From Escherichia phage JK1, in the sequence record MZ436830.1: 64,000 bases of DNA, one strand, 5' to 3'. Within the stretch, counting starts at the first letter, position 1, and every line of letters starts with the position of its first letter. The position numbers were made by a program, and so were the translations under genes. This document shows, one piece after another, positions 29,865-38,646 of this stretch. Below the pieces are notes generated by a model that was given only the letters and a program-made list of their open reading frames with translations, did not search any database and was not told where the DNA came from.

Positions 29865-30338
29865 TTATTTGAACGATTTAACGTACTGAATAGAACCTTT
29901 ACTATTCACAAAGGCAATTTTACCATTTTTATTATACATGGTAGCAGTACGTTGATAACCATAAGTTTGTTTACCAGATTGATAACCAACTAATGCGAAA
30001 TTATCTTCGCCCATTTTATTCTGTTTAGCGCGAATGCGTTCATGACCATGTGCCATAAGAACCTTAGCATCACCGGTTGCAATGGATCGACGAGTTTTTT
30101 CATCTTCAACTGTATTAACAAAGTCGTCAAATGAATCAAATTTAGCATGAGATTTATTATACAGTTTTCCATCTACTGCATAATTATATCCCTGTACATC
30201 CATCTCAACTTCTGTACCATCATCCAATACAGCAGTGATTTTTTGACCTTTTTTAAATTTCAAAAGATCAGTAAAAGATTCAGCAATAATTTGAGAATTA
30301 ATAGCTGCTTCAGTGATAAATTCTTGATATGTTTTCAT
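29865..30338 (-). CDS. Internal-protein-like ORF with capsid-targeting-sequence (CTS)-like N-terminus
   Basis: 157 aa; N-terminus MKTYQEFITEA matches the T4 internal-protein CTS (MKTYQEFIAE) with an I-x-E protease-type site; immediately downstream of denV. Confidence 0.6.
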   Translation of the reverse strand: MKTYQEFITEAAINSQIIAESFTDLLKFKKGQKITAVLDDGTEVEMDVQGYNYAVDGKLYNKSHAKFDSFDDFVNTVEDEKTRRSIATGDAKVLMAHGHERIRAKQNKMGEDNFALVGYQSGKQTYGYQRTATMYNKNGKIAFVNSKGSIQYVKSFK

Positions 30339-34994: not shown

Positions 34995-35024
34995 ATAGTA
35001 CCATGGAAGGGTAAGGATGTAAAC
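34995..35024 (-). promoter_or_regulatory. Early promoter (GTTTAC-N18-TACTAT)
   Basis: Plus gtaaac 35019-35024, atagta 34995-35000; leader identical to 19734-19755. Confidence 0.5.
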
Positions 35025-35154: not shown

Positions 35155-35189
35155 TACCAAAAAGCCCCAACCTTTTGGTCGGGGCTAAG
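35155..35189 (-). repeat. 35-nt direct repeat, copy 1 (terminator hairpin plus U-run), downstream flank of the CTS-like ORF
   Basis: taccaaaaagccccaaccttttggtcggggctaag; 32/35 identical to 35690-35724. Confidence 0.7.
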
Positions 35190-35193
35190 AATG

Positions 35194-35655
35194 TTATTTG
35201 ATTTGTTTAGCAGACCAAATGCGATCTTTAATAATTTTTTGGATGTCTTCAACATACTCTAGGTCATGAGCATGTGGATTATCTTTGAAACTATGAGCTC
35301 GCGCAAGTTTCTGGCCTTCGGTCTTAATTATCAAAAGTTCTTTAAGAATTGCTTCATACCTAGAGATAATTCCTTTAGCAATATTTTTTTCTTGTGCTGC
35401 TTTAGGGTCAGCCTTAGGAGCAGGTTTACCAGAAGGTTTTTCGAAAGCCGCACCAGTAGCAACCAGGCTTTTCCAGGCGGTGGTAACATAGTTACCCACA
35501 AAGCCTTCAGCTCTCATATCGTCATAGAACTTGTACCGAGATTCGTCAGAAGCATCTTTATAAGAATATTTACCAGCTTTAATAGCAGCAGTTGCTACAG
35601 CGCGAACATCTGAAGCGGATGCTTCGGTCATTAAAAATTGAGCATAAGTTTTCAT
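35194..35655 (-). CDS. Candidate packaged internal protein: CTS-like N-terminus, own late promoter
   Basis: 153 aa; N-terminus MKTYAQFLMTEA (CTS-like, L-x-E site); AGGAAA ribosome-binding site; TATAAATA 28 nt upstream; flanked by direct repeats. Confidence 0.55.
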   Translation of the reverse strand: MKTYAQFLMTEASASDVRAVATAAIKAGKYSYKDASDESRYKFYDDMRAEGFVGNYVTTAWKSLVATGAAFEKPSGKPAPKADPKAAQEKNIAKGIISRYEAILKELLIIKTEGQKLARAHSFKDNPHAHDLEYVEDIQKIIKDRIWSAKQIK

Positions 35656-35683
35656 TATTATTTCCTGTGTTAATTAACTCATC

Positions 35684-35691
35684 TATTTATA
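35684..35691 (-). promoter_or_regulatory. Late promoter TATAAATA upstream of ORF 35194..35655
   Basis: Plus tatttata at 35684-35691. Confidence 0.5.
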
Positions 35692-35724
35692 CCAAAAAGC
35701 CCCAACCTTTCGGCTGGGGCTAAG
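35690..35724 (-). repeat. 35-nt direct repeat, copy 2 (terminator hairpin plus U-run), upstream flank of the CTS-like ORF
   Basis: taccaaaaagccccaacctttcggctggggctaag; hairpin 35698-35721 followed on the minus RNA by UUUUU. Confidence 0.7.
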
Positions 35725-36035: not shown

Positions 36036-36111
36036 TGGTCGAGGCAGTAGGGATCGAACCTACGACCCAGGACTTAGAAGGTCCTTGCTCTTCCTTCTGA
36101 GCTATGCCTCG
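36036..36111 (-). tRNA. tRNA-Arg (anticodon UCU)
   Basis: Hand-folded: 76 nt, CCA encoded, anticodon loop CUUCUAA, T-arm GGTTCGATCC. Confidence 0.8.
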
Positions 36112-36115
36112 TATT

Positions 36116-36190
36116 TGGCGGACGTGATAGGATTCGAACCTATAACCAATCGCTTAACAGGCGATCGCTCTGCCATTGAGCTACACATCC
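36116..36190 (-). tRNA. tRNA-Asn (anticodon GUU)
   Basis: Hand-folded: 75 nt, CCA encoded, anticodon loop CUGUUAA, T-loop TTCGAAT. Confidence 0.7.
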
Positions 36191-36194
36191 AAAT

Positions 36195-36281
36195 TGGTGG
36201 GGAGTGGTGGAGTCGAACCACCCGAGTCGCAATGACAATGGATTTACAGTCCACACCGCTACCTCTACGGGATAACTCCCC
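36195..36281 (-). tRNA. tRNA-Tyr (anticodon GUA), long variable arm
   Basis: Hand-folded: 87 nt, anticodon stem-loop GTGGA-CUGUAAA-TCCAT, type II variable arm, CCA encoded. Confidence 0.7.
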
Positions 36282-36290
36282 AAATTAATT

Positions 36291-36365
36291 TGGTGGCCCT
36301 GGGTGGAATTGAACCACCATCTGGCGATTATGAGTCGCTTGCTTGAACCTTCCAGCTACAGGGCC
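36291..36365 (-). tRNA. tRNA with CAU anticodon (Ile via modified C34, or Met)
   Basis: Hand-folded: 75 nt, acceptor GGCCCTG/CAGGGCC, anticodon loop CUCAUAA. Confidence 0.7.
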
Positions 36366-36366
36366 T

Positions 36367-36442
36367 TGGTGCTGATTGACGGAATCGAACCGCCGACCTT
36401 CTCATTACAAGTGAGTTGCTCTACCTACTGAGCTAAATCAGC
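36367..36442 (-). tRNA. tRNA-Thr (anticodon UGU)
   Basis: Hand-folded: 76 nt, D-arm GCTCAGTAGGTAGAGC, anticodon loop CUUGUAA. Confidence 0.8.
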
Positions 36443-36447
36443 AAAAC

Positions 36448-36537
36448 TGGCGGAGGCGATAGGATTTGAACCTATGAGTCGCCGGAGCGACTGCCGGTTT
36501 TCAAGACCGGTGCATTAAACCACTCTGCCACGCCTCC
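36448..36537 (-). tRNA. tRNA-Ser (anticodon UGA), long variable arm
   Basis: Hand-folded: 90 nt, anticodon stem-loop CCGGT-CUUGAAA-ACCGG. Confidence 0.8.
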
Positions 36538-36539
36538 AG

Positions 36540-36613
36540 TCTCCATACAAGGATTTGAACCTTGGACCTCCTGATCCCAAATCAGGCGCTCTACCAAACT
36601 GAGCTACACGGAG
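36540..36613 (-). tRNA. tRNA-Pro (anticodon UGG)
   Basis: Hand-folded: anticodon loop UUUGGGA; CCA not encoded. Confidence 0.75.
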
Positions 36614-36623
36614 TAAATTAAAT

Positions 36624-36697
<74 letters not shown>

Positions 36698-36702
36698 AAA
36701 TT

Positions 36703-36789
36703 TGGTGCGAGAAGTGGGACTCGAACCCACAAGGAAATCATTCCGCAGCATTTTAAGTGCTGTGCCTTTACCAATTTGACCATTCTCGC
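36703..36789 (-). tRNA. tRNA-Leu (anticodon UAA), long variable arm
   Basis: Hand-folded: 87 nt, anticodon stem-loop CAGCA-CUUAAAA-TGCTG; one nucleotide separates it from tRNA-Gln (dimeric precursor). Confidence 0.8.
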
Positions 36790-36790
36790 G

Positions 36791-36863
36791 CTGGGAATAA
36801 AGGACTCGAACCTTTGCATCCTGGAATCAAAATCCAGTGCCTTACCAACTTGGCTAATTCCCA
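36791..36863 (-). tRNA. tRNA-Gln (anticodon UUG)
   Basis: Hand-folded: acceptor TGGGAAT/ATTCCCA, anticodon loop UUUUGAU. Confidence 0.8.
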
Positions 36864-36949: not shown

Positions 36950-37465
36950 TTAAAGCAAATTAAACATTTTAACGGTCGGCAAAACAATTTCTTTTTCTAT
37001 ATAAGAGTATTTAACACTCTCAACTACACGCAAAAAATCATAATCATAATACTCAGAAGCACTGCCTAAAATATTAATAAGTCCTTCAAGCACTTTATTA
37101 CCATTCACAAAGAATAAGTCAAATACGCGTTCTTCGTCTTCTTCGGATTTATTACCAAGGTCAACTTCTATATCAAAGACCTTTTTAATGAATTCTGGAT
37201 AAAGTTGTTCTGAGAACAGTCCTTCAACCAAGTATTCATAAATAAAAAGCGATTGCTCGCTGAACAAGCCATTACCACAATAACGTTCAGCTTTAGTACT
37301 AGAATGTCTACTTTTAAACTTCTTTAAAAGATATTGAAATTGTAAGATTTCATGCTCTTCTACGCCAAACAGTGTTTTAGTTTTATAGTTGTCACCATCA
37401 TTTTCCCAGGTAGTGACATCAATTACGTAACCCTGCGGAATTGTAGTACCTAAACAAATATTCAT
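36950..37465 (-). CDS. Hypothetical acidic protein
   Basis: 171 aa ORF between the tRNA cluster and the internal-protein-like gene. Confidence 0.5.
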   Translation of the reverse strand: MNICLGTTIPQGYVIDVTTWENDGDNYKTKTLFGVEEHEILQFQYLLKKFKSRHSSTKAERYCGNGLFSEQSLFIYEYLVEGLFSEQLYPEFIKKVFDIEVDLGNKSEEDEERVFDLFFVNGNKVLEGLINILGSASEYYDYDFLRVVESVKYSYIEKEIVLPTVKMFNLL

Positions 37466-38412: not shown

Positions 38413-38646
38413 TTATTTTTTACGAAAAATTGATTTATATTTATCAGCCCATTTCTCAATGACTTTTGCCGGGCCATAGATAACAAAGTAATCGCCAAAC
38501 TCTTCACCACCGAGTTGACCGAAATCATCTAATGCATCACGAAGAACTCCATGAGGCATTTCACCCATTTTATCTTTCTTGCCAGTGTAAATAAACTCAA
38601 CTTTTACATCAGCAGTTTCAGCAATAAATTCTTGATACGTTTTCAT
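38413..38646 (-). CDS. Internal protein with canonical CTS (IPI-like by position, just upstream of 57B)
   Basis: 77 aa from MKTYQEFIAE (exact T4 CTS decapeptide); GGAGAA ribosome-binding site; ORF track extends 6 codons upstream. Confidence 0.65.
   Translation of the reverse strand: MKTYQEFIAETADVKVEFIYTGKKDKMGEMPHGVLRDALDDFGQLGGEEFGDYFVIYGPAKVIEKWADKYKSIFRKK

Follow-up and report, generated by a model that had tools for sequence, protein, structure and literature searches.

What kind of gene lies between two nearly identical transcription terminators in Escherichia phage JK1, and why does its product open with a sequence that resembles the capsid-targeting leader of the T4 internal proteins (IPs)? 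The window analysed here is a stretch of 64,000 nucleotides of this genome and represents an RB27/JK1-type Tequatrovirus, with approximately 98% identity to RB27 across the region. A first-pass annotation, made from the sequence alone, had proposed that the gene is expressed from its own late promoter, was acquired as a cassette, and encodes a previously undescribed protein that is packaged and injected.

The gene and its predicted product

The open reading frame occupies 35194..35655, as first proposed, and is read on the minus strand (35655->35194, with the stop codon at 35194-35196). It encodes a protein of 153 aa that begins MKTYAQFLMTEA (the sequence is also given as MKTYAQFLMTEASASD) and is identical to JK1_0132 of Escherichia phage JK1. 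The good ribosome-binding site that had been attributed to the gene is present as AGGAA at 35666->35662 (35662..35666, minus strand), 6 nt 5' of the ATG, and is kept at all homolog loci. An antisense ORF of 115 aa (35266-35613, plus strand) lies entirely within the gene; no support for it was found and it is treated as a by-product of coding-strand composition.

The first 11 codons (35623..35655, minus strand) read MKTYAQFLMTE and form a capsid-targeting-type leader, with a predicted prohead-protease cleavage after Glu11. Residues 12-70 (35446..35622, minus strand) make up an N-terminal domain of three helices, common to homologs of other genera and bearing the conserved motif GKYSYKDxSDESRFxF...AWKS. 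This is followed by a low-confidence linker rich in Pro, Lys and Ala (residues 71-83, 35407..35445, minus strand) and by a C-terminal domain, a helical hairpin that differs among genera (residues 84-153, 35197..35406, minus strand). An AlphaFold2 model based on a 15-sequence alignment has a mean pLDDT of 77, places the three helices at residues 14-67, the linker at 70-83 and the hairpin at 84-150, and drops below a pLDDT of 50 in leader residues 1-11 alone. The mature part of the protein is basic (pI 9.4). The predicted fold is that of a generic helical two-domain protein and gives no hint of function.

Neither Pfam nor NCBIfam holds any match to the protein, and sequence and fold comparisons returned no match indicating any activity. 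PHROG 2280, a family of unknown function, matches it over its full length (E = 2.9e-52). The description of the protein as undescribed was borne out, in that no source assigns a function to the family and PHROGs carries no internal-protein label for it. No paper was recovered when full texts were searched with peptide strings of the protein, and the supplements of PMC12373910 do not contain it. Neither the family nor the rnaC-e.8 locus in which it lies is called an internal protein in PHROGs, in RB27/T4-style annotations or in the searchable literature, a comparison that did not include the approximately ten ip ORFs of Repoila 1994.

A late promoter motif between two terminators

A T4-type late promoter motif, TATAAATA, is present at 35684..35691 (minus strand), and its claimed position was exact: it runs 35691->35684, 28 nt before the ATG at 35655. 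In the A+T-rich window this motif is not enriched (12 observed vs 9.8 expected), and because it is not over-represented in itself, its significance rests on its position and on its conservation across genera. The homolog loci examined all present a hairpin and T-run, then TATAAATA or a close variant within a few bases, then 28-45 nt, AGGAA and the ATG. The succession of terminator and TATAAATA or near variant is found at the same place in Tequatrovirus, Mosigvirus-type phages, Jiaodavirus (Mineola) and Yersinia phage MHG19, where the homolog is preceded by its own hairpin and TATAAATA. This arrangement, a late promoter motif after a strong terminator and kept across genera, indicates that the 153-aa gene would be expressed late.

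The two flanking repeats were likewise confirmed as 35-nt sequences with 32/35 identical positions (33/36 with a one-base extension). A third copy is absent from the window, and none of 100 shuffles matched. As had been claimed, each repeat forms a hairpin with a U-run, consisting on the minus strand of a 10-bp G+C-rich stem, a 4-nt loop and UUUUU; both score as terminator-like. The upstream repeat (35690..35724, minus strand) is an intrinsic terminator with its stem at 35721->35698, a GAAA loop and a U-run, the tail of which overlaps the late promoter; the downstream repeat (35155..35189, minus strand), with its stem at 35186->35163, an AAAA loop and a U-run, is the gene's own intrinsic terminator. 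Folding energies of the two are -21.9 and -19.7 kcal/mol (z = -3.6 and -4.3). They differ at three positions; at two of these, within the 5' arm and facing UU, one copy has AG where the other has GA, so that pairing is retained with one A-U and one G-U pair in each copy. The corresponding hairpin positions read GA/GA, AG/GA or TT in other phages.

Because the upstream repeat follows rnaC, it closes the tRNA-rnaD-rnaC unit; the positions of rnaC and rnaD are those of the RB27 and T4 annotation, Rfam having no model for either. The downstream terminator is a near-identical repeat in many Tequatroviruses, and the ZN18-type locus (L007) has two copies with no mismatch across the hairpin and T-run (~31 nt). 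A different downstream hairpin is present in loci L005, L009 and L010, in Mineola and in MHG19, so the near-identical repeat is a lineage feature and not a universal cassette border. Outside the cassette, a sigma-70-type promoter-like site (TTTACA-17-TACTAT with TG; 34995..35023, minus strand) lies 5' of e.8 and is kept in T4.

A capsid-targeting-type leader with a variant predicted cleavage site

The likeness to the T4 capsid-targeting leader proved to be a good match, and the leader is kept in homologs of several genera. The accompanying claim of an L-x-E cleavage site did not hold for this allele, however, which reads F7-L8-M9-T10-E11 and has Met, not Leu, at P3. L-x-E is present in most homologs, and the FLMTE of the window allele is the minority form. 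For the IPIII leader, positions 4 and 7 have been assigned to targeting and positions 8 and 10 to processing (Mullaney & Black 1996, as summarised in PMC9026906). MKTYAQFLMTE has both targeting determinants, Y4 and F7, and resembles the IPIII sequence also in its hydrophobic position 8 and nearby Glu; it differs in that the Glu is at 11 and not 10, the Leu-to-Glu spacing being one residue longer than in the tested leader.

Many homologs differ from IPIII in another way, having two tandem L-x-E sites (FLNE-VVLNE) that give a 15-residue propeptide, as in MKSYAQFLNE-VVLNE-AS and MKTYNEFLNE-SVLTE-AS. In an alignment with the 157-aa homolog forms, Met9 falls opposite the P3 Leu of their second site, and the window leader therefore resembles the outcome of a short deletion together with a Leu-to-Met change. 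Further homolog leaders read MKSYAEFLTE-QS, MKFKEFLAE-AS, MLNFNEFLAE-SQEINE-AT, MLKFNEFLAE-GI and MITFNDILVE-GL. Leu8 is invariant in the family sequences (15/15), while an aromatic residue at position 4, a hydrophobic one at 7 and Glu at 10 are nearly constant. Homologs lacking the leader had been named as evidence that would count against a packaged protein; nearly all keep it in the form M-K/L-x-Y/F-x-E/Q-F-L-x-E, and homologs of other genera at 31-47% identity retain both the leader and the L-x-E site.

When every ORF start in the 64-kb window was scanned for the leader motif, three ORFs only were recovered, namely the 153-aa ORF and two in the classical IP loci. The latter are a 77-aa ORF in the ipI locus (38413-38646, minus strand; MKTYQEFIAE-TADVK...) and a 157-aa ORF in the ipII/ipIII locus (29865-30338, minus strand; MKTYQEFITE-AAINS...), both 'internal virion protein' in PHROG, which match PST ipVI and ipIV, respectively, in position and length. 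None of the three leader-tagged proteins in the JK1 window is T4 Ip1, Ip2 or Ip3. The mature parts of the three are unrelated to one another, and similarity between the upstream DNA of the 153-aa gene and that of the window's other IP genes is confined to the leader codons. Descent of the 153-aa protein as a paralog of the IpIV-like 157-aa protein, which is of the same length class, was considered and rejected, since similarity is absent.

Distribution of the family

A 701-bp region around the gene matches 674 phage records, of which 466 cover at least 80% of it, and tblastn recovered at least 80% of the protein from 469 records at 72-99% identity. Among the 60 matches listed, the protein is named 'hypothetical protein' or something similarly uninformative, or else carries no annotation. 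Homologs at 31-47% identity were found in Mosigvirus, in Klebsiella Jiaodavirus (Mineola, KP01), in Yersinia phages MHG19 and fHe-Yen9-01 and in Serratia phage PS2; the Mineola gene lies directly 3' of tRNA genes and a terminator and 5' of an e.6-like gene. A HMMER search of 1.84 billion representative proteins gave 9 matches, the named ones all T4-like phage proteins, with no informative distant relative and no extension of the family beyond T4-like phages.

Shorter versions of 93-111 aa in some phages look like truncations. The wide syntenic distribution, combined with the absences described below, suggests that the 153-aa gene is old and syntenic but dispensable in Tevenvirinae. Two metagenomic sequences contain parts of the protein: P0010 joins its residues 9-39 to a Nudix-like sequence and may have arisen when a deletion joined the gene to nudE, and P0009 joins an unrelated N-terminus to its last 32 residues. 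Both may be products of recombination or deletion at the locus, or assembly artefacts.

An empty site in T4 and its relatives

On the transcribed strand, the gene order of the window is 1, 57A, 57B, ipI, tRNA.4, tRNA.3, tRNA.2, a 171-aa ORF, ten tRNAs, rnaD, rnaC, the 153-aa gene, e.8, e.7 ... e. The first-pass annotation had rightly placed the gene between the tRNA cluster and the e-distal ORFs, more exactly between rnaC and e.8, but it was mistaken in placing T4 segB and tRNA.x ORFs there: in that phage segB is located within the tRNA cluster, and tRNA.2-.4 are found towards ipI. Between rnaC and e.8, T4 has one terminator and the e.8 upstream region, and no gene. In a three-way alignment of the window, T4 and RB27, the T4 sequence passes from rnaC through one hairpin to a junction between GGGGCTTTTTGGTAT and CTAG, where it directly joins what lies beyond the downstream repeat in the window.

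The unit that is present in the window and absent from T4 and T2 measures 535 bp (35155..35689, minus strand) and comprises one repeat, the late promoter, the ribosome-binding site and the ORF; its exact breakpoints are not placeable inside the repeat. The T2 empty site is identical to that of T4, and T6 and PST are also without the gene. A single terminator copy remains at the empty site in T4, T2, T6 and PST, which makes recombinational loss between the repeats likelier than gain, and on this sequence evidence deletion between the direct repeats is the most likely way in which these four phages lost the gene. The notion of the repeats as cassette borders thus survives in part: against T4 and T2 they delimit a precise 535-bp unit, but near-identical repeats occur in a subset of phages only. 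The further claim of cassette-type acquisition needs revision: the gene is no rare newcomer, being present in approximately 470 records and at the same site in other Tevenvirinae genera, including in Mosigvirus, Jiaodavirus and Yersinia phages. A recent insertion marked by the flanking repeats was also considered; the synteny of the gene across genera led us to reject it as the principal reading.

Other parts of this region vary as well. segB is absent from the tRNA cluster of the window (36036-36863, minus strand), which comprises ten tRNAs (Gln, Leu, Gly, Pro, Ser, Thr, Met, Tyr, Asn, Arg); that of T4 has eight, including Ile, with segB between Arg and Ile. The 171-aa ORF (36950-37465, minus strand; PHROG 2290, unknown function), which borders the cluster between tRNA.2 and tRNA-Gln, also varies in presence: RB27 and T2 have it, T4 and T6 do not. 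A 116-aa ORF lies between tRNA-Arg and rnaC in T2 (L015 5003-5353) and G8 (L002 2418-2768), roughly where T4 and RB27 have rnaD, which suggests that the rnaD position is likewise variable.

A second leader-bearing ORF at the same locus

In phages of the ZN18, fPS-65 and pSs-1 type, a 187-aa ORF (MKTYAEFLTE-AAKLPSE...) lies directly 3' of the homolog and before e.8, at L007 2100-2663 in Yersinia phage ZN18; it is absent from the JK1 window. Beyond it come a hairpin of its own and, leading into the e.8 upstream region, the same junction, CTTTTTGGTATCTAGG. The ORF occurs in 165 records and is unnamed in all of those listed. Its likeness to the 153-aa protein is limited to the leader, where 10/13 residues are identical, and the mature parts have no detectable similarity. 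PHROG 2280 lumps the two proteins together and may be held together partly by this shared leader. Based on its sequence, we regard the 187-aa ORF as a further candidate internal protein.

The rnaC-e.8 interval can accordingly hold no cassette (T4, T2, T6, PST), one (JK1 window, RB27, G8, fD1) or two (ZN18, fPS-65, pSs-1). The classical IP loci have been characterised as polymorphic, encoding unrelated proteins with a common leader and bordered by conserved regulatory sequences (Repoila 1994, as cited in PMC12373910 and PMC9026906). Unrelated proteins that carry one leader at a site of variable content are the signature of such loci, so rnaC-e.8 behaves as a third IP locus. Recombination within the terminator and promoter sequences that they have in common would exchange cassettes at this site or delete them.

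Evidence from virions

The protein g140 of phage fD1 (HE956711) is a 157-aa homolog encoded at the same locus, with 82% aligned identity. It was scored particle-associated by LC-MS/MS of purified virions (two or more peptides, mean spectral count ≥ 2) and is marked as without T4 counterpart (PMC8309999 Table S3). The fD1 dataset confirms that the homolog is made. As 113/277 phage proteins, including rIIB, were scored particle-associated in that study (PMC8309999), detection of g140 is weak proof of packaging, and we count it as modest evidence. No peptide corresponding to the mature N-terminus was found. One homolog, from Klebsiella phage KPKp, is named 'Internal head protein' in its UniRef record.

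Discussion

The 153-aa product is, in our view, probably a T-even-type internal head protein that is expressed late, targeted by its leader, cut after Glu11 and injected with the DNA. The parts of this reading do not stand equally firm. Packaging of the 153-aa protein is likely, targeting and cleavage of the window allele and its injection are what we infer from the leader, and an anti-defence role, proposed by analogy, is our leading guess.

According to this model, the terminator after rnaC would halt early and middle read-through from the tRNA operon, while TATAAATA, overlapping the terminator tail, would drive late transcription and the second hairpin copy would end the short transcript. 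The 11-residue leader, with Tyr4, Phe7, Leu8 and Glu11, would bring the precursor to the scaffolding core of the assembling prohead. Cleavage after Glu11 by the prohead protease gp21 would then leave a basic protein of 142 aa and ~15.7 kDa (pI 9.4) inside the capsid, predicted to consist of the conserved three-helix domain, a flexible linker and the variable helical hairpin. By analogy with the T4 proteins, the mature protein would exit with the DNA at infection and most likely bind and block a host nuclease-type defence.

T4 Ip1, Ip2 and Ip3 each inhibit one distinct GmrSD variant, and are mutually unrelated and fast-diverging (PMC12373910). The 153-aa protein has no sequence or fold similarity to Ip1*, Ip2 or Ip3 beyond the leader; given that the known Ip inhibitors are unrelated to one another, this is no argument against a similar mode of action. 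A broader proposal, which we offer tentatively as one that may well prove wrong, is that rnaC-e.8 is an unrecognised third IP locus of the Tevenvirinae, and its 153-157-aa product an injected defence inhibitor that T4, T2 and T6 have lost, leaving them exposed. The N-terminal domain would in that case be a common binding or delivery module, the C-terminal domain would confer target specificity, and the 187-aa neighbour would be a second effector.

Alternatively, the protein may be packaged but have no specific host target, acting as a general basic protein of the head interior in DNA charge neutralisation or organisation, in ejection or in protection of the DNA ends. The basic mature part, its pI of 9.4 and the Lys/Pro/Ala-rich linker would suit such a role. 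The gene is kept, with a well-conserved N-terminal domain, in genera that differ in host and DNA modification, unlike Ip1-3 (PMC12373910), a pattern that fits a housekeeping role inside the head as well as it fits an arms-race inhibitor. Because this domain is unusually conserved for an arms-race gene, a general role is a fair alternative, yet we think it rather unlikely: the gene is dispensable, being deleted in T4, T2, T6 and PST and reduced to apparent truncations of 93-111 aa elsewhere, its C-terminal domain is swapped between genera, and the three T4 internal proteins whose functions are known all act against restriction.

It is less probable still that the product is a late non-structural protein that is never packaged, its leader being a relic of the shuffling of IP-gene modules and the fD1 detection a carry-over from the lysate. 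The fD1 proteome does list many non-structural proteins as particle-associated, the window allele is without a strict L/I-x-E site, and the gene is outside both classical IP loci. A relic would have decayed, however, whereas this leader is retained across genera amid varying neighbours (Leu8, the aromatic residue at 4 and the Glu), and it is common to a second, unrelated ORF at the locus; non-packaging is unlikely for these reasons. A chance ORF between two terminators, for which the lack of a Pfam or NCBIfam match might speak, is already refuted by an ORF that is intact in approximately 470 records (72-99% identity) and has homologs in further genera, by the peptides detected in fD1, by the conserved ribosome-binding site and promoter and by a confident structure model.

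Our preferred reading, that of a packaged internal protein, places the family beside IPI-III (Ip1-3) and IpIV-IpVII, with which it shares a short leader of the MKTY.EF..E type that has an aromatic residue at 4 and Phe at 7 before a Glu cleavage site, the latter predicted here. Like the T-even Ips it is small, basic and non-essential, with a mature part unrelated to the others, and like their genes it occupies a polymorphic locus beside conserved regulatory sequences and varies in presence among close relatives. It differs from them in its location at rnaC-e.8 rather than at 57B-tRNA.4 or ipII/ipIII, in the lack of similarity to the named Ips beyond the leader, in the Met at P3, and in being far more widely conserved, with several genera carrying it at one site.

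The flanking sequences recall the PeSL elements (Arbiol 2010; Comeau 2014, PMC4122927), in which indels in a hyperplastic region are bordered by a stem-loop terminator joined to a promoter, and recombination between copies would similarly account for gain and loss of single-gene cassettes. A PeSL combines its stem-loop with an early promoter, whereas here the promoter is the late motif TATAAATA; moreover, the part that is repeated in JK1 is the hairpin and T-run, the promoter being found on the upstream copy only. The JK1 terminator/late-promoter repeat acts in the manner of a PeSL without fitting the definition.

Leader-tagged internal proteins in polymorphic loci have long been known as a phenomenon, and the 153-aa family is probably an unrecognised member of this T-even class. 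Before 2025 a target was known for Ip1 alone. With Ip2 and Ip3 since recognised as inhibitors of other GmrSD variants (PMC12373910), any additional protein bearing such a leader becomes a concrete candidate for a counter-defence factor that is injected. The family is present in roughly two thirds of sequenced T-even-type phages and in related genera, and its absence from the laboratory models T4, T2 and T6 is probably why it has no name. It would add a third polymorphic IP locus to the two described in 1994, and the locus illustrates how cassettes may be lost and gained through a terminator/late-promoter repeat. The empty site of T4, T2 and T6 offers a natural gain-of-function test for the 535-bp cassette.
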